A DNA stretch of 64,000 nt from a virus (lineage: Duplodnaviria > Caudoviricetes): positions 128,001-192,000 of IMG/VR virus record IMGVR_UViG_2595698668_000001; one strand, given 5' to 3'. The notes below the pieces were generated by a model that had not been told where the DNA came from, did not search any database, and saw nothing but the letters and a program-made list of their open reading frames with translations. Every line of letters starts with the position of its first letter. Positions within the stretch are counted from its first letter, which is position 1. The position numbers were made by a program, and so were the translations under genes. Shown here piece by piece: positions 22,161 through 64,000 of the stretch.

Positions 22161-22176
22161 ATTTTTGGATTTGCTA

Positions 22177-23859
22177 TTAGGCACCCAGAACACGTACACG
22201 ACGGTAGAAGGAGTTCTTACCGAAGATTGCAGCACCCGGCATACCGGAAGTGATCTTGGAGAAGCCTTTGTTCTTGGAACCGTCAGCGAACGGGTGCAGT
22301 TTAACACCGTAACGGGTCTTGAAGCCAAGAATGGTAGCGAAGGACTTAGGATCCACACCACGCAGCGGGCTCAACGGGATGTATGGGCAGTAGTACAGAC
22401 CTGCATCCAGTTCGGAGCTACCCTTGAAGCCTACAGTGAAGTAATCTTCAACAGCGTACTGGTCGATGAAGACACGATACTTACCAGCCAGAACACCAGC
22501 GAACTGAGATACAGAGGTATCAGTGTTCAGCTTGGTAGTACCAGCAGCAGCCGGAGAAACCATCTGGTCGGTGGAACCGAGCATTACAGCAACGTTACGG
22601 GAACAGATTACGAAGTTACCGTTACCACGACCGGTTTGACGACCGATTTCAGCAGCTTCCTTATCGATTTGGGTAACCAGAGCCTTGGCGCTCTCACCTT
22701 GCCAACGAGCACCGCGAACGTCGTTCGGGTCTGCAAAGTTAAAGACACCAGCTTGTCCGCCATGTTGGTTAGTCCAACCAGTCTTACCGATTTGGGCGGT
22801 AGCGTTGATCCACAGGATCATTTCGCGGTTGATTTCCAGCATGATTTCGTTAGCCAGAATGCTGGACAGTTCGCTATCTGCATCCAGACCGTGAACGTTA
22901 CGCAGATCCTGAGCCAGTTCGATGGAGTACTGAGCTTTCAGTTGACGAGCCTTAGCTTCAACTACTTGCTTATCAATACGGAAACTCATTTCAGGCCACG
23001 GGTTATTGCTGGAACCATTAAAGTTCTCTTGCAGTTCCGCCATGGAGGTAGCCATACCTTCACCGATTTCAACCGCGATCTTGTCGTGGATCAGTTTCAG
23101 GTAACCAGCGGTTTTAACGTCAGCAGCAGTACCAGCAGTATAAGCGGTAACGAACTGAACAACCTTAGTACCGGAGTTGGAATAAGCGTCTACTTCTTCA
23201 TCCAGTTGGAAGCGAGCCAGATCACCGATTGCATAGGTTCCGTCTTTATCAAAAGCAGGAATCAGCGGAGCAGTGGCACCACGACCAGAGAAGCTGGAAT
23301 CAGGTGCATATTGCGGGTGGAAAGCTTCGCGAGCTTGAGCATCCAAAGCATCAGTACCATAGATGGCACGGAGGGTGAATACTTGACCAGCAGAAGAGGT
23401 CATCGGCTGAACACCACAGATATCAAAGGCAATCAGGTTGCTGATAGCACGACGAGCCAGACCCATAACAGCCGGACCGACGTTGGTGATGTTACCGGAA
23501 GCTTCACCAGAGGCGATCTTGATAGCATCATAACCGTGGTCACCGACGATGTTAGCTTCGGTCAGCATGGTTTCCATCTCTTCGCCGGACAGTTCGCGAC
23601 CTTCTGCCAGAGCAGCGGCTTGAGCTTCGTTCAGCATCTTTTTGGCTTCTGCCAGTTGAGCTTTACGACCTTGTACGTCAACCATGGAATCGATTACGGT
23701 TTGGTCGGTATATGCAGCACCGTCGTTACTCTTGATGTCTTCATATTGGTTTTCCATCAGACGAGCGACGATATCCTTGCGCTTCATGGTAGCAATTTCC
23801 GGCATACCTTCTTTTTCAAGCAGCGGTTTCCACTTAGCGATAATAGCGGTCTTAGACAT
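22177..23859 (-). CDS. gp23: Major capsid protein
   Basis: KW.PLL..EG, GDHGY, GPAVMG..RRAI.NLIAFDICGVQPM, WPEMSFRIDKQ, YSIELAQDL..VHG.DAD, GFKTRYG. Confidence 0.98.
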   Translation of the reverse strand: MSKTAIIAKWKPLLEKEGMPEIATMKRKDIVARLMENQYEDIKSNDGAAYTDQTVIDSMVDVQGRKAQLAEAKKMLNEAQAAALAEGRELSGEEMETMLTEANIVGDHGYDAIKIASGEASGNITNVGPAVMGLARRAISNLIAFDICGVQPMTSSAGQVFTLRAIYGTDALDAQAREAFHPQYAPDSSFSGRGATAPLIPAFDKDGTYAIGDLARFQLDEEVDAYSNSGTKVVQFVTAYTAGTAADVKTAGYLKLIHDKIAVEIGEGMATSMAELQENFNGSSNNPWPEMSFRIDKQVVEAKARQLKAQYSIELAQDLRNVHGLDADSELSSILANEIMLEINREMILWINATAQIGKTGWTNQHGGQAGVFNFADPNDVRGARWQGESAKALVTQIDKEAAEIGRQTGRGNGNFVICSRNVAVMLGSTDQMVSPAAAGTTKLNTDTSVSQFAGVLAGKYRVFIDQYAVEDYFTVGFKGSSELDAGLYYCPYIPLSPLRGVDPKSFATILGFKTRYGVKLHPFADGSKNKGFSKITSGMPGAAIFGKNSFYRRVRVLGA

Positions 23860-23931
23860 TTTTGTTTTCCTTTTTGGATTTGAAATTTAATTTTCGGGGA
23901 GAAGAACCATTTCTTCTTTCCCTTACAAATA

Positions 23932-46210: not shown

Positions 46211-47192
46211 AGAAACTAAACACCACGTTAAATTCTTCCGTTTGATCTCTAGAACGAATTACCGGTTGTCTATTATCCATATAGATAACATTACCGCTAT
46301 GTCTTTCTAGTTGTGACGGATCGTAACTGAGTGCAGTTGCTTTTACATCTGGGTCCGCTGGTGTATTTTTCACCAACAGTGGGTTGTTTATAATTCCCAT
46401 CTGTCGAAAACCAGTGTTACCTATTTTACTAGATGCTGGGAAATTATAACTGTCGAAATAAGACCTAAACCTAAGTGTATTACATTTTATCCTACCAATT
46501 AGGTTATAATCATTTGGATACCAAGTTATAACATGTTGGTATCCCCACACATCGGGAGATGTTTTTAGTTCATCGGGGGTTGGCACTACGATATATTCAT
46601 TTGAACAATCGTTTATTGCAACGTCGGTTGGTATTGTGTATAGATATTCCCATATATAACCATCTTGCATGTTTACGCCATCAGAACGTCCAATCGGGAG
46701 TATGCTGAATATTGATGGAGTCCATTTACCACCAACTTTCAAACACTCTTCCTTGTCTTTAATGGTTTGAATCGAACACATACCATCTGATGGTACATCG
46801 ACACAACGATAAACCATCCACCCAGACCCAATTTCAGTTGTGTTATATGGTGCTGAGTTGGTAACTACAATGTCACCGATATGGAAAGTGTATGGGTCTG
46901 CATATCTCTGGTCACCCCAATCTTTACGAGGCACCACCGGACGGATAAGTTCTTTTTGGATCTTAACTGCTCCGAGCATCCTAGACCAAATATCCGAATA
47001 CCCCTCCGATGTATCGTCAGGATATGGCGGTGCAAATTTTGGATCCGACTCGTTATCCGCCCATGCTTCACTTCTTCCGAAATATGCATAGAGGGTATTT
47101 TGTGTATTACCATCTCCGATAAGAGAATAAAAGTTTAAAAGGTTAGCGACCCGAAAGTCGCTAGTAACCATTGCTCTATAAATCACTGACAT
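46209..47192 (-). CDS. gp8: Baseplate wedge subunit
   Basis: SVIYRA.VTS.FR...LNFY..IGD, FGRS..W..NE...FAPPYP.D, PR.DWGD, WEYLY.IP. Confidence 0.96.
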   Translation of the reverse strand: MSVIYRAMVTSDFRVANLLNFYSLIGDGNTQNTLYAYFGRSEAWADNESDPKFAPPYPDDTSEGYSDIWSRMLGAVKIQKELIRPVVPRKDWGDQRYADPYTFHIGDIVVTNSAPYNTTEIGSGWMVYRCVDVPSDGMCSIQTIKDKEECLKVGGKWTPSIFSILPIGRSDGVNMQDGYIWEYLYTIPTDVAINDCSNEYIVVPTPDELKTSPDVWGYQHVITWYPNDYNLIGRIKCNTLRFRSYFDSYNFPASSKIGNTGFRQMGIINNPLLVKNTPADPDVKATALSYDPSQLERHSGNVIYMDNRQPVIRSRDQTEEFNVVFSF

Positions 47193-49879
47193 TATTGTTC
47201 TACCTTAACTTGGGTAGGCGGTACTGGCACAAGGAGTTTACTTACATCACGAGGATTGCCTATATCATCCTTAAGCCGTTTTTCTGACAACCGTTTAAGG
47301 TCAGAATACCTACTACTGAAATCGCTAAACAAGGGACTACCATCAAGCCTACGCGCCGATGGGGTATAAACAACACCGTCAACAGTCCAATTTTGTTCAT
47401 CTTGGTCATAATTTCTGACCTCAAATACATTACCGGTACTTGTATCAATTGCGTTATTCCACTCAGACACATCAAATGGCGTTTGTGGTTGTTCCACTTC
47501 CATTAATTCCCCTGTTATCGGGTCGAATAGAGGTACTGGATCTGTAAACGAACCATTGGGGTCTGGTACTGTTCTATATTTAGGGGTTAGGCTAGGTAAA
47601 CCTGAATCCCACCGATATGATTTATTTATATCGACGATAGTCTCTATGTGTTTCATAGAAATACCACCGTTAACCATAACAGTTAGTAGAGTAATACCAA
47701 CAAATCCAAATCCAACTGGATGAACAAACCGAATAACATCATCCTTATATCGAGATGTGTTCAATTCAGAACGAATTCTCATCATATAGTAAGATCTGTT
47801 TCTGTTTATATAATCTATGTCGGAATATGCCAGCTCTTTACCCTTAACTCCCCGCGTGACTTCACCAACAAAAGAACTTGATTCAGATTTTATTTCTTGC
47901 CCAACTTCCAACTTACCAATAAGGTTATGAATCGTTATTTTCCATCTTAACTGACCATCAACAAACTGACGCTCAATATAGGTAACGTTGGCTCGACCAG
48001 TTTTGGTAAATATCGTTCTTCCAACAAGATCAGTACTGATATTAGACGACTTAACCAGTATATCATAATCTATCCCAACTTGAGATTCGATTTCAATATC
48101 TACATCGGCATCATATAGCAGTTTGAACAAGAACTTATAACTATCCAGAGTTCCCTTTGAGCTATAAAAGTTATTGGCGTTAGCTTCGAAGAATTTAACA
48201 ACCTCATCTCTCTTGTTTTGGTCTAGATATATATTCCGTCTTCTCATCTCAGACCACAAAAATACGAAAGAATCTTTTTCTCTCGGGTATTTCAGTTTGA
48301 TGAAATTGAGAAGCTTGCCATACATCGAATCAGTACCATCAGATAGGAATTGAAGATAATATTCAGCAAACTTAGAGTAATTTGAATCATTGAAATAATG
48401 TTCAGGCCCCATAATTCTCAACATAGGTGCGATATTTGGGTCAATAATTCCTGTATCATCCTTCTTCTCTTCAACAACTTCTCTTTCTTGGTTTATCAAA
48501 GAAGCTTGCAACGCGATATATTCTGGTCTCCAAAATACAGATGCTTCGTCTCTAACACGATAAGGGAACTCATAGTATCCAAATATCTCTCCACCAAGAC
48601 CATTCTCTCTATTATAAGCAGTATGGATCAAAATACCGTTACAATACTTACTAAAGTTTTTGAAATTGATATTGTTCAGATAAAATTTTACAGAACCTTT
48701 ATTCCAAACTTCTTTGTTATATACCCGTGTAGGGTCTATGTTATATTGGTATTTGGTGGAAGGTGTTATAAGAACTATTCGGTTTTCATGGTTTTTCCAA
48801 ACCCTCTCCCCAGTCATAGCCATATAATCAAACCCAGCCTCGTTATAATATCTAGCTGGTCTTAAGGAGAAAACATCACCATCTTCGGTTTCCCATTGAT
48901 ACATGAAAACTTTCTTTTCACTAAGATATCCAAAGTCGGAACTGTATTTCACCGCATAGGTCACATCATCCGGGTATTTATTAACGGTATCAAGATCTTC
49001 GATAGTATTGGTGTATTTGTAAGTTGCACCTGATACAAATAATTTAGTACCATCAACACTCATATCTGAATATTTGTGTTCGATATTATACCGTTCATCC
49101 TCGGTATTCCCAAATACTCTTTCCCATGAACCACCATCCGGAACAGAAGGCTTTACTATCTGTCCATCTTCTTGGTAAAGGTCAAAAATATTAGGATAGG
49201 CAAAATCGTCAACAAACCGACTATATTTCACCGGGTCTACTATCTTTTGTACAGGGTCAGAATAGATATCAGCAATAAACTCAAATGAGTCGTGGCTATC
49301 ACTTGGTACAAAGTTGACTTTCATTTGCATTCCATGGGTTCTACCTTGGAATATCCTAGATTCCCATCGTGTAGAAACTTTACCAACGTGTGTACCGTCA
49401 GGAAGGAAAGTCACCATCTCACGACCAACGTCAATACCATTGATAAAACTAATATCTTCTGCTGGGTCGGAGAAGTTCATATTCCCCAACATAAAATCTT
49501 CTTTCTTGTATTTTTCGTTGAGACGATATACACCAGAATATGTAGATTTCTTTACGTTTTTCGGATCTCTTTTATCTTTCCCTGCGTCTACTTCACCGGA
49601 TACCAGCGCATAACAAACCTCGTTAAGCACATCCATTTTCTTAACTACTACGTTTGGATTATCACAGATCGTAAAGACTTCCGGATCCCATATGATATTA
49701 CCTTCATTATCGGTTGGGCCACCAGATACACGTATACGTCTAGCAACACCATTTGCAGAGGCATATAGCCACATATTAGAGGACGTTTGAGCTTCTACTT
49801 TTCTTCTGATGTCGTCGGGGTACTTGGCAAAAGTCCCAAAGAACATAGTAGGAAATGGGATAGACGAATCAGTATCCAT
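47192..49879 (-). CDS. gp7: Baseplate wedge initiator, C-terminal portion (frameshift-split)
   Basis: W.RVFGNTE.ER, RNIYL...KRDEV..FFE....FYS.KG...SYKFLFKLLY, Y..DV.RFVHPVGFGF, RLKD..GNPRD. Confidence 0.92.
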   Translation of the reverse strand: MDTDSSIPFPTMFFGTFAKYPDDIRRKVEAQTSSNMWLYASANGVARRIRVSGGPTDNEGNIIWDPEVFTICDNPNVVVKKMDVLNEVCYALVSGEVDAGKDKRDPKNVKKSTYSGVYRLNEKYKKEDFMLGNMNFSDPAEDISFINGIDVGREMVTFLPDGTHVGKVSTRWESRIFQGRTHGMQMKVNFVPSDSHDSFEFIADIYSDPVQKIVDPVKYSRFVDDFAYPNIFDLYQEDGQIVKPSVPDGGSWERVFGNTEDERYNIEHKYSDMSVDGTKLFVSGATYKYTNTIEDLDTVNKYPDDVTYAVKYSSDFGYLSEKKVFMYQWETEDGDVFSLRPARYYNEAGFDYMAMTGERVWKNHENRIVLITPSTKYQYNIDPTRVYNKEVWNKGSVKFYLNNINFKNFSKYCNGILIHTAYNRENGLGGEIFGYYEFPYRVRDEASVFWRPEYIALQASLINQEREVVEEKKDDTGIIDPNIAPMLRIMGPEHYFNDSNYSKFAEYYLQFLSDGTDSMYGKLLNFIKLKYPREKDSFVFLWSEMRRRNIYLDQNKRDEVVKFFEANANNFYSSKGTLDSYKFLFKLLYDADVDIEIESQVGIDYDILVKSSNISTDLVGRTIFTKTGRANVTYIERQFVDGQLRWKITIHNLIGKLEVGQEIKSESSSFVGEVTRGVKGKELAYSDIDYINRNRSYYMMRIRSELNTSRYKDDVIRFVHPVGFGFVGITLLTVMVNGGISMKHIETIVDINKSYRWDSGLPSLTPKYRTVPDPNGSFTDPVPLFDPITGELMEVEQPQTPFDVSEWNNAIDTSTGNVFEVRNYDQDEQNWTVDGVVYTPSARRLDGSPLFSDFSSRYSDLKRLSEKRLKDDIGNPRDVSKLLVPVPPTQVKVEQ

Positions 49880-49932: not shown

Positions 49933-50694
49933 TTACTTCATCAACGTTTCGTCCATAAAAGCAAAATCATATCCAAGAAGGAAAGATGTATTCCTGTTTT
50001 GGCTCATTACGGTATTACCGGTTGGATATCCAACACGGTCAGAAATAGCTTGGTAGTAATACCAGTTCTGCCCACCGTCGTTAGTTACCTTACAGTAGTT
50101 TTGATATTTTTCAAATGCATATACAACACGGCGATTCGCACCAAGGTAAACACTATTAATATCCCGACAAATTTTTGATACAGAACCCAAAATCTCATGA
50201 TATTCGTCGTCGCTAGTAACAAAGTTTTCTATATTTGTGACGTTCGAGATGCTAGGGTCATATATAAAGTTTTCATTCATCAAACTAGCCTGAATTACAT
50301 CACTATTGAGGTTGATATAATCCATCTTGTTTTTATGCAACTTCATATCAATAAACTTAAACGACGGAATGAATTTCTCCATGGTAGATATTTGATATGC
50401 GTTTGTTGTGAATGATTCGATTACATCACTAACAACCCAATCAGACGGCTCCAAACCGGGATGAGTTGTAGATATTCTAAATTTATATTTTGTATCTGGG
50501 ATGAGAGATGAACTGAAAAATTCGGGGGAATATTCCACCCCCAATTGTGTCCAACTATCTACCCCAGTACCTGAAACGATGGTGTATTCGACAATATAAA
50601 AATAGTTCGAACCTACATCATCCCATTTTAGGTGAACGAAGTTCGCGCCGAGCATGGCGACGCGAAGACTTGTTATTGTTGGAGCTTTTATCAT
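49933..50694 (-). CDS. gp7: Baseplate wedge initiator, N-terminal portion (frameshift-split)
   Basis: KAP.ITSLR...L.AN.V...WDDVG.N..Y.VE (FN3-like); reading continues in the -1 frame at 49957-49960. Confidence 0.9.
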   Translation of the reverse strand: MIKAPTITSLRVAMLGANFVHLKWDDVGSNYFYIVEYTIVSGTGVDSWTQLGVEYSPEFFSSSLIPDTKYKFRISTTHPGLEPSDWVVSDVIESFTTNAYQISTMEKFIPSFKFIDMKLHKNKMDYINLNSDVIQASLMNENFIYDPSISNVTNIENFVTSDDEYHEILGSVSKICRDINSVYLGANRRVVYAFEKYQNYCKVTNDGGQNWYYYQAISDRVGYPTGNTVMSQNRNTSFLLGYDFAFMDETLMK

Positions 50695-59396: not shown

Positions 59397-59867
59397 ATGG
59401 CCGGAAATAACACATACAAAGGTCAATACTTTGTAAAGAATAGAGAAAAATATAAAGGTGATCCAAAAAAGGTTACCTACCGTAGTTCGTGGGAAAAGTA
59501 TATAATGGAGATGCTGGATAATAATCCAGACGTTAGATATTGGAATAGTGAATGTATGGTTATTCCGTATTTTTCTAATGCAGATGGAAAGAAACGACGT
59601 TATTTTATGGATATGTGGATACAGTGGTCTGACGGTTCTATTTCTCTCTGGGAAGTTAAGCCTAAAAAAGAATGCTTTCCACCAGTACCACCAAAAAGGA
59701 ATACATTAAAAGCAAAAAATGCTTATATTCAAGCTGTGTATACATGGCAAGTCAATAACGACAAATGGAAAACCACCGCAGAATTATGCAAGAAAAAAGG
59801 GTGGAGATTTAATATAATTAATGAGGACTCATTGAAAGCAATGGGTTTCAAAGGACTTACTAAATGA
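59397..59867 (+). CDS. gp4: Head completion nuclease (TnsA-like)
   Basis: YKG....N..KYKGD...I/VTYRSSWE, WNSE..VIPY, RRYF.D, EVKP.KE, VN..KW. Confidence 0.94.
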   Translation: MAGNNTYKGQYFVKNREKYKGDPKKVTYRSSWEKYIMEMLDNNPDVRYWNSECMVIPYFSNADGKKRRYFMDMWIQWSDGSISLWEVKPKKECFPPVPPKRNTLKAKNAYIQAVYTWQVNNDKWKTTAELCKKKGWRFNIINEDSLKAMGFKGLTK

Positions 59868-60862
59868 TATTCGAAATAACGGAACGTGCAGAGTCCACAA
59901 CAGAAAAACGCAATAGAAAACAATGGATTGATGTTGGTGTTGATTATATGAACGCCAAGAAAAAGAACCCAAGTCTTACTGCAAAGAAATATGCAGAGGA
60001 AAAAGGGTTGAATTATGAAACATTCAGTAGAGCTATGCGCAGGCACAGAGAAGAAATAAAGACTTATTATTCTCTGGTGAATCCAAACAAGAATAAACAA
60101 CAATGGATTGAGCTTGGTGTTGATTATTTGACACAAAAAGAAAAGAGTAGCATTACTCTAAAAAATTATATTGAAGGACGGGGACTTAATAAAGAAACCA
60201 CGGAGCGGGCATTCAGAAGATTCAAGCAAGATATTCTATTGGCTAAGAAATTAAAAGACGCACAAATAAGCGGAAGAAAACTATCTAAAGCCGAAAAATA
60301 TCAGATGCTATTGGCTGACTTTAGAAATAAAGTAAGACAACATGAAAAAGAGCCAGTCAAGTCTCAGAAGAAGTCAACGGAATGGTTTAACAATTTCATA
60401 AAGAAAAACGTTCGGGGACACCAAGTAACAAGACCTATTGCTGGTCGATTGTATACTTTCGCATATGATGCAAAACATAAAGCAACCCTACCATACTGGG
60501 ATAAATTCCCCCTGATAGTATATCTTGGTCTTAGTGCAAAACACAAAGGTTTGATGTTGGGTCTCAACCTCCACTATATTCCGGTAAAAGCCCGTAAAGA
60601 ATTTATGGAAGAGTTGCTGAAACATGCAACCACAGAGAGGATTACCAACCGTACATCCCTAAATATCAACTGGGGTAAGGTTAAGGGAATGAGGGGTGCA
60701 GACCATATGATCAAAGCGTATTTGCCGGGTCATATTAAGGGTCCATTAATGGAGATTAAGCCGCAGGATTGGAGTTCTGTTATTAATCTACCGACTCAAC
60801 GGTTTGTATCTGGTGTTCCTCCGAAGACCTATAATACGAATTCCGTTTGGAGATCATACTAA
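59864..60862 (+). CDS. gp2: DNA end protector protein
   Basis: GRLY.F.YDAKHK.TLPYWD.FPLI.YLG, GLNLHYIP.K.R..F..ELL, IKAYL. Confidence 0.95.
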   Translation: MIFEITERAESTTEKRNRKQWIDVGVDYMNAKKKNPSLTAKKYAEEKGLNYETFSRAMRRHREEIKTYYSLVNPNKNKQQWIELGVDYLTQKEKSSITLKNYIEGRGLNKETTERAFRRFKQDILLAKKLKDAQISGRKLSKAEKYQMLLADFRNKVRQHEKEPVKSQKKSTEWFNNFIKKNVRGHQVTRPIAGRLYTFAYDAKHKATLPYWDKFPLIVYLGLSAKHKGLMLGLNLHYIPVKARKEFMEELLKHATTERITNRTSLNINWGKVKGMRGADHMIKAYLPGHIKGPLMEIKPQDWSSVINLPTQRFVSGVPPKTYNTNSVWRSY

Positions 60863-61818
60863 TGAATTTAATACCACCTATTCCAACCATAGATACGTTG
60901 CAAAATGCGTTTGACCGGACACTTGAGTCCGGTCTTAATTCACTAACAAATTTATCAATAGATGCATCAGATGAAATACCAGACCTAACTAGGTTCATGA
61001 GAAAAGTAGAAAATTCGGATTTGGCTAGACCTAACATGTTTATTGTTCGGTTTGGGGATTTCCGAACATCTATATTCAGTGATGGTGTTTTTGACCGAGA
61101 TCTTCCGATATTTCCGGACTCAAATAGTGGGATGGACGTCAACGACAGCCTTTTCTCTGGTACAAGTTATGCTTGGCATAGAGTTCAGGATATTGCATTG
61201 GGACAAGCGCACAAAATCCTCACACCTAGCATGAAGAAGATTTTTGGTGCTTGGGATCCGTCCTTGATCCGAATCATACCGGGTGCAGGAGAGATCCTTG
61301 ACGGATTTTTGGGAACTGATTACGATGTAAACCGTGATCTTGCACTTATGGTAAAGAGTGTCGGTCTTCCTAGTTCTACTTTAGAAACGACAATCAACCG
61401 TACAGACAAACTACCTCGACATGAAGTACGGGGTAGAAACTACGGAACCATGAGTATGACGTTTTACTGTTCCCCTTCTTACGAGGAACGTTCTTTGATG
61501 CTAACATGGCAGAATACAATTGTCAACCCAAGAAATGGACAATTTGGATTTTATAATACGTATGCAAAGGATATTGACGTCATCACATTAGACCGTCATG
61601 GAGTTAAGCAATCCACCGTACATAATACAGGGTGTTTTCCCATAGAGGTAGGTGAAGTCCAACTAGATTTTGAGAACAATTCTCAAGTAGCGACCTTTAC
61701 CGTCACATTCGCTGTATCAACCACAGTGCATGTTCCTACTAAGGGTGAAGAGAACGGTATAGACTCTATAGAGAGTATCATAAGACGTACTACAGGCGTT
61801 GTGAAAGCCATACGTTAA
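60862..61818 (+). CDS. gp54: Baseplate tail tube initiator
   Basis: DLARPNMF.V.F, LMVKSV.LP, W.N.IV.P..G, GC.P..V....L....N.Q..TF.VTFA (tube-like fold). Confidence 0.85.
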   Translation: MNLIPPIPTIDTLQNAFDRTLESGLNSLTNLSIDASDEIPDLTRFMRKVENSDLARPNMFIVRFGDFRTSIFSDGVFDRDLPIFPDSNSGMDVNDSLFSGTSYAWHRVQDIALGQAHKILTPSMKKIFGAWDPSLIRIIPGAGEILDGFLGTDYDVNRDLALMVKSVGLPSSTLETTINRTDKLPRHEVRGRNYGTMSMTFYCSPSYEERSLMLTWQNTIVNPRNGQFGFYNTYAKDIDVITLDRHGVKQSTVHNTGCFPIEVGEVQLDFENNSQVATFTVTFAVSTTVHVPTKGEENGIDSIESIIRRTTGVVKAIR

Positions 61819-61823
61819 TACTA

Positions 61824-61847
61824 AGCCATCCTACGGGGTGGCTTTTT
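61824..61847 (+). terminator. Terminator identical to 19241-19264
   Basis: AGCCATCC-TACG-GGGTGGCTTTTT. Confidence 0.88.
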
Positions 61848-61854
61848 CATATCT

Positions 61855-61974
61855 ATAGATCTCGAACGTAGTGAGACGGCGTAGCCGCCTGTTCGCTTCG
61901 CTCACACTCTTTCTAATTATAGATCTTCTATATAAATACTTATAGAGACTTTATAATTTGATTACAAGTGAAAC
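61855..61974 (-). repeat. 120-bp structured non-coding element, copy 2 (inverted)
   Basis: Near-identical reverse complement of 19636-19753. Confidence 0.95.
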
Positions 61975-62050: not shown

Positions 62051-62836
62051 ATGACAAACAAAACCACGATTGACAAGAGTGTACTTCTTGCTGCTATGCA
62101 GAAAAACGTACAACAGACCAATGTGACTTTATCAGATGGTAGGAAGATCAAGGTTCGTGCTTTCTTGATGAAAGAAATGAAACTGTTGATGCTGGCTAAC
62201 GAAGCTAATACTGGAATCGATGATGCAATCATTCAAATCGTAAAAAACTGTATCCTAACCGATAATGTTGATGTAGACCTTTTACCTGTGTTCGACTTAG
62301 AGGCTGTTTATCTAGCTTTGTATAAGCTATCAAAAGCCAGTCCTACTGTCCCAGTTATGTTTACTTGTGCTAACGAAATTCTTGATGAAGATGGTAATGT
62401 CCAATATGATCAATATGGTGAAATTGTTCGTTGTGGTTCTGATATCAAAGTAAACGTAAACTTGAATAATGCTAAATTGTCTGATGCACCAGATAACAAA
62501 ATTGTTCTGAATGAGAACATGACCGTTTATATGAGATATCCTAATATCAGCGAGGTTGAATATTTCAACGTAGAAGTTGAGTCTGACTTGTTTAACTTAA
62601 TAAATCGCTGTATTGACGAAGTTCATATGGGAGATCAGGTTGTTAAGGTTGGTGTTGATATTCCGTATGAGGATATTTCGGAAATTATGGAATATGCCGA
62701 TTCAGTTGCTTTGACCAAAATGGGAACATTTGTAACGGCTCTCCCCCAACATACTCTAAATATACCTGTAAAGTGTAAAAAATGTGGACACCAAGAAATT
62801 GTTACACTTAAAGGGGTAGAAAGTTTTTTCGCATAA
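62051..62836 (+). CDS. gp26: Baseplate hub assembly chaperone
   Basis: R.FL.KE.K.L..A, L..FDLE..YL.L, I.L.......MRYP, C..CG.....L.G..SFF; CTAAATA at 62016-62022. Confidence 0.85.
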   Translation: MTNKTTIDKSVLLAAMQKNVQQTNVTLSDGRKIKVRAFLMKEMKLLMLANEANTGIDDAIIQIVKNCILTDNVDVDLLPVFDLEAVYLALYKLSKASPTVPVMFTCANEILDEDGNVQYDQYGEIVRCGSDIKVNVNLNNAKLSDAPDNKIVLNENMTVYMRYPNISEVEYFNVEVESDLFNLINRCIDEVHMGDQVVKVGVDIPYEDISEIMEYADSVALTKMGTFVTALPQHTLNIPVKCKKCGHQEIVTLKGVESFFA

Positions 62837-63000
62837 CGCTTGTTAACCATACCATATACGATCATTTTAATACGGTATATAAGCTTAGAAAAGATGGATG
62901 GAGCCATTCAGACCTTGAGGATATGACCCCCTTTGAATTTGGTGTTTATGTTCACCTCTACCTAAACGATCTTAAAGAACAGGCGAGAGAAAAGGACTAA
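62824..63000 (+). CDS. gp51-like C-terminal segment, probably translated by -1 frameshift from gp26
   Basis: Hand translation FFRITLVNHTIYDHFNTVYKLRKDGWSHSDLEDMTPFEFGVYVHLYLNDLKEQAREKD*; no ATG/GTG/TTG before the conserved part; T TTT TTC at 62824-62830. Confidence 0.75.
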   Translation, partial: FFRITLVNHTIYDHFNTVYKLRKDGWSHSDLEDMTPFEFGVYVHLYLNDLKEQAREKD

Positions 63001-63003
63001 GTG

Positions 63004-64000
63004 ATGATTGACAAGCAGAAACAGAACGAACTTGATAAATCGGTTCGAGATGTCACGGATGCTATGGATATTGTTTCTGATTCGATGCTTAAGTTGGACG
63101 ACAAGACAGAAAAGTTGTCCAACTCAACAAAAGACCTTACCGCGTCTTATGATATTACCTCTGATTCCAGTCTGGAAGTCGCACAAGAACAAGAAAAATT
63201 AGCGAACCAGATAAAAGGTGCAAGAAAGGATAATAAGCGTAGTAATAAGGTTGAAAACGAATTAGTTTCAGCTAGACGAAAGCAACTGGAAGACATTTTA
63301 AATAATAAACAACCCCTAGTGGATTATAGCCAAGGTGTAAAAAGTCAGAACCCGGAACAGGGGGAAACTGCCAAACCTATGCAGGAAGACACTAGGGAGA
63401 CTTTGAAAGAATTTATACAGCGCGAAGTTGGTGATCGCCGCGAATTTGTGGAAAATTTCAAAGAAGAAAATCAAAAAACTGGTAAATTTGTTCGAGAGAT
63501 AGCAAAAAAAGCTAATATAGTTGATCGAATGAAGAAATCAGAAACATCAGCAACAGCGAAAATACTTGGTCATACCATGTCCGCTGGTATCGGTATGGTT
63601 ACTGGAACCATAAACGATTTGTTATCAACTATTCCCGGTTATAATCAGGCCGCTAATGCAACGAAGTTTGTTGGTGGGTCTATTATTGATGCACATAACG
63701 CACGTAAGGAAAAGAAATTAGATGCAAAAGCGAATGCGGCTTATGAAGAGAAGAAGGCTGATGCTACTTCTAGATTCCAACAGATCCCACAAAACAAACC
63801 AGAAGACAAAGTAAAAACAGATAGAAATAACCAAGAGCAAAAGAAAGAAAGACAAGAAAATGGAAGAGAACGAGAGAATAACGAAAAGCGTCATAAAAGC
63901 TTAATCGATGTTCTTAAAGGTATCCAGATGTCCATGTTGATCGGTAAACTGATTGGTGGTGTTGGATTTGTTCTTAGTGGTCTTGTTTCTGGTATCAGTG
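63004..64000 (+). CDS. gp29: Putative tape measure protein (5' part, runs off window end)
   Basis: Frame from ATG 63004 (MIDKQKQNELDKSVRDVTDAMDIVSDSMLKL...) hand-checked open over its first ~100 codons; helical/coiled-coil, with G/A-rich hydrophobic stretches near the window end; follows gp26/gp51-like. Confidence 0.65.
   Translation, partial: MIDKQKQNELDKSVRDVTDAMDIVSDSMLKLDDKTEKLSNSTKDLTASYDITSDSSLEVAQEQEKLANQIKGARKDNKRSNKVENELVSARRKQLEDILNNKQPLVDYSQGVKSQNPEQGETAKPMQEDTRETLKEFIQREVGDRREFVENFKEENQKTGKFVREIAKKANIVDRMKKSETSATAKILGHTMSAGIGMVTGTINDLLSTIPGYNQAANATKFVGGSIIDAHNARKEKKLDAKANAAYEEKKADATSRFQQIPQNKPEDKVKTDRNNQEQKKERQENGRERENNEKRHKSLIDVLKGIQMSMLIGKLIGGVGFVLSGLVSGIS

Follow-up and report, generated by a model that had tools for sequence, protein, structure and literature searches.

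How does a T4-related phage supply both of the baseplate hub assembly proteins known from T4, gp26 and gp51, when its genome holds a single gene of the gp26 family? The case considered here is a stretch of 64,000 nucleotides (nt) of phage DNA, referred to throughout as the window, which covers bases 128001–192000 of the IMG/VR virus record IMGVR_UViG_2595698668_000001 (231,743 bases; completeness estimate 98%). One gene in this genome, gene 26, matches PF12322. An original prediction held that a -1 shift on the heptamer T_TTT_TTC, at the 3' end of this gene, joins gp26 to an open reading frame (ORF) that has no start of its own and is related to gp51. Comparative evidence strongly supports this core claim, and we consider it likely that gp26 (261 amino acids, aa) and a 316-aa equivalent of gp51 are made from one gene by a programmed -1 ribosomal frameshift.

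The end of gene 26 and its -1 frame

The site consists of the following elements, given with E-values (E) where a family was matched.

62051–62836, + strand: short form of gp26, 261 aa by standard decoding (PF12322, E 2.5e-54; phrog_150, E 2.9e-58)
62811–62816, + strand: Shine-Dalgarno-like AAGGGG, a candidate upstream stimulator, 7 nt before the heptamer (read directly)
62824–62830, + strand: slippery heptamer T_TTT_TTC, in the X_XXY_YYZ register of the gp26 frame (read directly)
62834–62836, + strand: 0-frame stop TAA, exactly one codon past the heptamer (in the same place in 98/98 loci, see below)
62830–63000, + strand: extension in the -1 frame, 56 codons and a TAA, which a shift would attach after Phe260 (match to phrog_634, 'baseplate hub assembly catalyst', E 2.2e-12)

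The gp26 protein scores 184.7 bits against PF12322 (T4_baseplate), for which the curated cut-off is 24.5, and its gene ends GTA GAA AGT TTT TTC GCA TAA (VESFFA*). In the -1 frame, a TAA at 62809–62811 is followed by an opening at 62812, and the frame stays open to the TAA at 62998–63000. Direct reading confirmed these limits together with the end of gp26 and the positions of the heptamer and of AAGGGG, all of which had been described in the original prediction. One detail needed correction: the first ATG, GTG or TTG of the -1 frame, said not to occur before the 35th codon, is codon 38 when counting starts at 62812, and codon 34 when it starts at the first Phe codon. Slippage on the heptamer is predicted to join 260 residues of gp26 to 56 of the extension, giving a product of 316 aa, the length that had been estimated. 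Besides phrog_634, the -1 ORF also matches the C-terminal part of phrog_150 (positions 230–282).

Taken alone, the heptamer is unremarkable, and its significance comes from the comparison of relatives. TTTTTTC is present 15 times on the two strands of the window versus 31.8 ± 5.7 expected, with 100 of 100 shuffles containing at least 15 copies, a depletion that would fit with slippery runs being avoided.

A tblastn search with the 62-aa translation of the -1 frame as query matched 91 phage records, which came from Aeromonas, Vibrio, Cronobacter, Citrobacter, Pectobacterium and Acidovorax phages and from many cyanophages. All 16 records that were examined in detail end gene 26 with the heptamer, one codon and a stop, and carry a -1 ORF of 55–70 codons starting FFR[LIV][TA]L. 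Loci from IMG/VR were picked by motifs in the N-terminal and middle parts of gp26 only, so that the site itself was not selected on; in this sample, comprising 9 Aeromonas-type loci and the best 80 of 593 cyanophage-type loci, the same arrangement was found in 89/89, with the -1 ORF running off the contig end in 2. Removal of duplicates left 98 distinct gp26 loci, from Aeromonas, Vibrio, Cronobacter and Acidovorax phages and from cyanophages. Conservation of the heptamer at gp26 3' ends had been proposed as a check on the original prediction, and in all 98 the heptamer is retained in frame, as is the stop after one further codon; the start-less -1 frame follows, and the surrounding codons vary.

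The codons of the site point to constraints at the nucleotide level rather than at the protein level, both for the wobble bases of the heptamer and for the stop. The heptamer is TTTTTTC in 95 loci and TTTTTTT in 3, which means that the second Phe codon is TTC in 95/98, versus a TTC share of 0.33 among the other Phe codons of the same genes. The codon preceding Phe-Phe is AGT, TCT, GCT, GAT, AAT or GGT; these encode five different amino acids and invariably end in T (98/98, background 0.64). Between the heptamer and the 0-frame stop, 20 different triplets are found among the 98 loci. The stop itself is held in position because the -1 frame codon lying over it, for Ile, Val or Leu, is exclusively NTA or NTG; where it encodes Ile it is ATA in 48 of 48 cases, versus a background ATA share of 0.11.

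The same counts bear on transcriptional slippage, in which RNA polymerase would add one U on the T6 run and the edited mRNA would yield the same 316-aa protein. The protein predicted is identical, and the site is indeed a homopolymer (T6, or T7 in 3/98 loci), but the run is fixed at six T followed by C in 95/98 and always lies in the X_XXY_YYZ register with a T at the preceding wobble position. Such a fixed register is needed by tandem tRNA re-pairing and not by polymerase slippage, selection for which would favour longer runs; the productive transcriptional slippage sites that we know of are runs of about 8–9 or more. We therefore regard transcriptional slippage as quite unlikely. Homopolymer runs are also prone to error, and an assembly or sequencing error, masking a continuous ORF, or a decaying gene that left a pseudogene remnant could be imagined. 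The arrangement recurs, however, in 98 distinct loci from many studies, and contigs from three independent public runs or studies span the T-run without an indel, which excludes sequencing error; the indel giving one continuous ORF that had been named as a possible refutation is thus absent from these contigs. Gene decay is at odds with purifying selection on the -1 frame (see below), and error or decay is refuted for practical purposes.

That selection is seen when the window is compared with phage 65. The two differ at 42 of the 171 bases of the extension, and the ratio of synonymous to non-synonymous codon changes is 25:9 in the -1 frame, versus 5:29 and 4:31 in the other frames. In the start-less first 33 codons of the -1 frame it is 14:4. 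By this measure, the -1 frame evolves as coding sequence under purifying selection. Across the 98 loci, the first possible start of the -1 ORF varies from +3 to +35 codons past the first Phe codon and lies upstream of the site in 4; the nearest stop of the frame lies 0 to 28 codons before the site, directly against the heptamer in four loci. A genuine start in relatives would have spoken for an independent gene, and the candidate starts are not conserved in position; the -1 ORF has no conserved start of its own.

These observations make it very unlikely that the -1 ORF is a separate small gene, expressed from an internal or non-canonical start of its own or by re-initiation after gp26 termination. 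Such a gene has been assumed in the records of phiAS5, Syn19, P-RSM6, S-ShM2, PX29 and Ahp1, which annotate small ORFs from an internal ATG or TTG (in some records a 'baseplate hub assembly catalyst' of 40–63 aa), and the gp26 stop lies just 4 nt past the heptamer. However, the candidate starts shift between loci as described, conservation and the synonymous signature begin at Phe-Phe, before any start, and the homologous residues of T4 gp51 continue a gp26-like body in frame. A separate gene would moreover leave unexplained both the fixed heptamer and the loss of the heptamer alongside a separate gene 51, described in the next section. A joined coding sequence is annotated in 0/16 of the examined phage records, several of which call a piece of the extension of 26–63 aa a separate protein, and a large protein collection contained no longer protein that includes the window's extension, which is weak evidence. 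The next gene starts right after the extension ORF or shortly before its end; in 7/10 Aeromonas-type records the two overlap by 4 nt.

Under programmed ribosomal frameshifting, most ribosomes would pass T_TTT_TTC, add one Ala and stop, giving gp26. A minority would slip by -1 with two Phe-tRNAs on UUU UUC, both re-pairing with UUU UUU (tandem P- and A-site slippage), and would read the 56 codons of the -1 frame to complete the long form. We infer that the slip at the heptamer is ribosomal and that its efficiency is low, which would make the long form a minor, 'catalytic' species. The long and short forms would be the counterparts of T4 gp51 and gp26, non-structural or weakly structural building factors of the baseplate hub. 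The fixed 0-frame stop may keep the short form free of a tail, or may contribute to the shift.

The shift may be helped by the upstream Shine-Dalgarno-like element, GAGGG or AAGGGG. A conserved Glu-Gly pair occupies the codons five and four before the first Phe; there, Glu is GAG in 60/83 cases versus 741/2313 elsewhere in gp26, and Gly is GGR in 68/96 versus 283/693 (98 loci, uncorrected for relatedness). This bias yields GAGGG or GGAGG 8–9 nt before the heptamer and is suggestive of synonymous choice for an upstream stimulator. Several results weigh against the frameshift reading. The Shine-Dalgarno-like signal is confounded by conservation of Glu-Gly at the protein level, and relatedness is left out of account in the codon tests. 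When 96 junctions were folded one by one, the mean z was -1.3 versus mononucleotide shuffles, with inconsistent shapes; RNAalifold found 0 pairs in 11 Aeromonas-type sequences and only a trivial 5-pair helix in 20 cyanophage sequences; an Rfam search of the site gave no match. With no conserved downstream structure and no Rfam match, the stimulator is uncertain. A downstream RNA stimulator, either a hairpin or a pseudoknot, was considered and rejected, since the fold and alignment tests revealed no conserved pairing.

One gene here, two genes in T4

In T4, the two proteins are encoded by two divergently transcribed paralogous genes (26 and 51), whereas here one gene with a frameshift is predicted to provide both forms. 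T4 gp26 and the gp26 of the window are homologous, both belonging to PF12322, and the T4 protein is of the short form, ending ...EFFELL. T4 gp51 (249 aa) matches PF12322 over residues 1–201 (E 3.9e-52), and its residues 147–246 match phrog_634, the family also matched by the -1 ORF. Profile alignment with hhalign placed the extension on residues 200–245 of T4-type gp51 (probability, prob, 94.6; E 7e-8) and the gp26 body on residues 6–185 (prob 92.4, E 5e-7), and in a joint MAFFT alignment the Phe-Phe of the gp26 end and that of the extension start share the same two gp51 columns. AlphaFold2 models of the window's gp26 and of a T4-like gp51 reached a predicted local distance difference test score (pLDDT) of 93.2 and 93.4, respectively, the extension forming four helices in the latter (residues 196–248).

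According to these alignments, T4 gp51 is a gp26 paralogue carrying the same extension in frame. Since T4 gp51 is gp26-like over the remainder of its length, the 316-aa product would be the equivalent of the whole of gp51, not of gp26 plus gp51. The gp26–51 fusion of the original prediction holds in that the -1 ORF is related to gp51, but only the last ~50 residues of gp51 correspond to it (the alignment with prob 94.6). One T4-like IMG/VR genome, L119, was left out of the gp51 alignment because its gene 51 is interrupted: two ORFs, 1201–1563 and 1587–1958, jointly cover gp51 (L119:1201–1958). The break is far from the frameshift-homologous region and may be a sequencing error or a broken gene.

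The distribution of the heptamer follows that of gene 51. Gene 26 of T4, unlike the gene of the window, has no slippery site, Phe-Phe being encoded by TTC TTT in the T4-like loci, and among seven T-even-type IMG/VR genomes that carry a separate gene 51, the heptamer is kept in gene 26 of none (TTC TTT, or Phe-Phe replaced). Two genes, or one gene and a heptamer, is the pattern expected if both forms are needed and the heptamer makes the second.

Aeromonas-type phages share a four-Cys motif, which in the window protein consists of C106, C128, C242 and C245. T4 gp26 and gp51 have counterparts of it; cyanophage gp26 lacks the second Cys pair. T4 gp26 also weakly matches the gp28 PHROG (E 9e-4). 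A relationship between gp26 and gp28 was considered and found unsupported, as the alignment of T4 gp28 to the gp26 family by hhalign had prob 0.45; the T4 gp28 family (PF11110) has no match in the window's own genome.

By homology, the two forms of gp26 would be the hub assembly factors known from T4. A section of a review of the T4 tail lists gp26 and gp51 as hub assembly chaperones, and describes gp51 as essential yet absent from the particle and the presence of gp26 in the particle as disputed (PMC3004832). A G/GT-type chaperone role for the gp26 pair, modelled on gpG and gpGT of phage lambda, is a good hypothesis, to which we return below.

If the frameshift operates as proposed, both proteins would come from one recoded gene in a very large group of phages related to T4, among them the marine cyanomyoviruses, which are abundant, and genes 26 and 51 of T4 would be this pair in unfused form. 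Long-tailed phages are typified by chaperone pairs coupled through a frameshift, and T4 and its relatives have, to our knowledge, so far been the exception; in the work of Xu from 2004, T4 was reportedly not among the phages with an identified site. Our search of the full-text literature, which covered material outside subscription journals and supplementary files, found no published report of frameshifting in gp26, gp51 or the baseplate hub, and the available part of the recoding review of Atkins 2016 contains no mention of baseplate, T4-like, cyanophage or gp26. Hundreds of genomes, in which the long form is absent or the extension is called a tiny separate 'gp51', would have their annotation corrected. 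The family would also offer a natural experiment in the evolution of frameshifting, with recoding replaced by gene duplication, and the function of gp26 and gp51 would become testable as ratio control and partner binding.

Gene order and the protein encoded next

The DNA around gp26 is 97% identical to Aeromonas phages of the AS-zj/AS-yj group (Straboviridae, Emmerichvirinae, Ceceduovirus) and ~70% identical to phage 65 and its relatives; Aeromonas phages account for 18/18 of the records that match the region at the DNA level. On the + strand, the gene order is gp4, gp2, gp54, gp26, a 620-aa protein, gp3 and gp1. Upstream, on the other strand, lie gp48, gp53, a gp27-like protein, gp5, a PAAR protein, gp25 and gp6–gp9. 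The features that flank gene 26 are these.

60847–61818, + strand: gp54-like baseplate-tail tube initiator of the T4 gp19 tube family, the gene before gp26 (phrog_45, 'tail tube', E 2.2e-48)
61823–61844, + strand: terminator-like hairpin followed by a T-run, after gp54 (consensus scan alone; 1 found versus 0.8 expected)
61931–61938, + strand: TATAAATA, a candidate T4-type late promoter ahead of gp26 (consensus match)
63004–64000, + strand: first 332 aa of a 619/620-aa protein of the 65p120 family, a tape-measure candidate that runs past the window end (phrog_11300, function unknown)

The gp54-like gene matches PF06841 below its curated cut-off (E 2.2e-4), and the AS-yj record labels it 'baseplate-tail tube initiator'. 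The candidate promoter was recognised with the T4-type late promoter consensus, which has 10 matches in the window versus 6.3 expected and is not significant by itself.

The original prediction placed a putative tape-measure gene directly downstream of the extension. A gene does follow there, starting at ATG 63004 (GTG 63001), but it is a candidate only, without a significant link to gp29 of T4. Its 620-aa product, taken at full length from the virus record and close in length to T4 gp29 (590 aa), looks coiled-coil-like in its N-terminal part and is hydrophobic and Gly-rich in central segments; it has no Pfam match and no PDB sequence match, and the ESM Atlas offers no more than a lead, a PF25671 cluster at rank 13 (score 0.89). 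The T4 tape-measure families (PF25671, phrog_1283), and any other tape-measure family, went undetected in the window's genome. Its length, its coiled-coil and Gly-rich segments, its weak matches to the gp29 family (detailed below) and the lack of any other tape-measure family make this protein a reasonable tape-measure candidate. At window position 63049, within the same gene, one contig of one run is 9 bases shorter, an in-frame length variant.

Three further observations concern other genes of the window. The homologue of the baseplate wedge protein gp7 is split into adjacent ORFs at 47192–49879 and 49933–50694 (- strand), which match phrog_964 at positions 1–255 and 282–1029. The gp2 DNA end protector (59864–60862, + strand) matches phrog_429 at residues 137–332 and has an N-terminal extension that contains two copies of a helix-turn-helix-like module (phrog_32288). 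Two long ORFs on opposite strands, 22165–23883 (+, 572 aa) and 22177–23859 (-, 560 aa), nearly coincide, and probably just one of them is a gene.

Comparison with known recoded genes

In dnaX of E. coli, which encodes tau and gamma, a -1 shift is stimulated by a Shine-Dalgarno-like element ~10 nt upstream and by a downstream hairpin. The gp26 site resembles it in combining a homopolymeric-type heptamer, on which a -1 shift is predicted, with upstream sequence of Shine-Dalgarno type (here GAGGG or AAGGGG, at 7–9 nt). It differs in lacking a conserved downstream structure, and in that the shift would lengthen the protein here, whereas it shortens it in dnaX.

The closer comparison is with gpG and gpGT of lambda. 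Levin in 1993 and Xu in 2004 are said to have described the lambda pair and the conservation of the tail-assembly-chaperone frameshift in long-tailed phages. Common to the two systems are a -1 shift near the 3' end, an X_XXY_YYZ heptamer, two products that share an N-terminal body and, presumably, rarity of the longer one; a passage on the lambda-type mechanism likewise has the heptamer close to the end of the upstream ORF, a few codons ahead of its stop (PMC5009743). The gene also sits, as in lambda, between a gene of the tube family (gp54) and a long tape-measure-like gene, and the T4 homologues are assembly factors, gp51 being absent from the virion according to the review section cited above (PMC3004832).

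The differences are equally concrete. The gp26 protein has neither a sequence relation nor a significant fold relation to known tail chaperones, its body is about twice as large and bears the four-Cys motif in most lineages, the extension is just 56 aa, the heptamer is U_UUU_UUC, and the function known from T4 is hub assembly and not shaft initiation. The gp26 locus matched no tail-chaperone Pfam family. Baseplate-hub proteins of many myoviruses, jumbo phages among them, share the gp26-type fold, with 60 BFVD matches at E <= 0.001.

We give about an even chance to the proposal that the gp26 pair acts like lambda G/GT, in which case the tape-measure-like protein of the adjoining gene would be held by the shared gp26 body, and a tube or hub partner would be recruited by the four-helix extension. 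Several findings weigh against it. On the structural side, the gp26 model has no PDB match at E <= 0.001 in Foldseek, the best-probability match being the HK97 tail assembly chaperone 2ob9_B (prob 0.69, E 0.74, 70 columns), and no tail chaperone is among the top 50 matches of the gp51-type model. As for the presumed client, hhalign of the 620-aa protein gave prob 0.3 against T4 gp29 alone and prob 24.7 (E 8e-4) against a six-member gp29 alignment, the latter confined to the hydrophobic Gly-rich middle segment. The downstream gene is, moreover, a different one in Acidovorax phage ACP17, where it encodes a small protein with a weak match to a spanin family, and in cyanophages, where it encodes a long protein under 'endolysin' or unknown PHROGs. 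Of the G/GT system that the original prediction had extended to the T4 superfamily, the gene order fits (gp54, gp26 with its shift, the tape-measure-like gene, gp3), but a significant gp29 link and a chaperone fold match were not obtained.

A wider reading, which we put forward tentatively and lean slightly against, is that gp26 and its extended form are the missing tail assembly chaperone pair of the T4 superfamily, that the frameshifted single gene is ancestral, and that the T-even lineage duplicated it into genes 26 and 51. The frameshifted state would then be the one common to Aeromonas, Vibrio, Cronobacter and Acidovorax phages and cyanophages, and T-even phages would have been left with a short gene 26 lacking the slippery site and a gene 51 that is long in frame. 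The gp26 body would escort the tape-measure protein into the hub, with the four-helix extension docking it to the hub or tube initiator, and the 'catalytic' amount of gp51 in T4 would be the counterpart of the low G:GT ratio in lambda.

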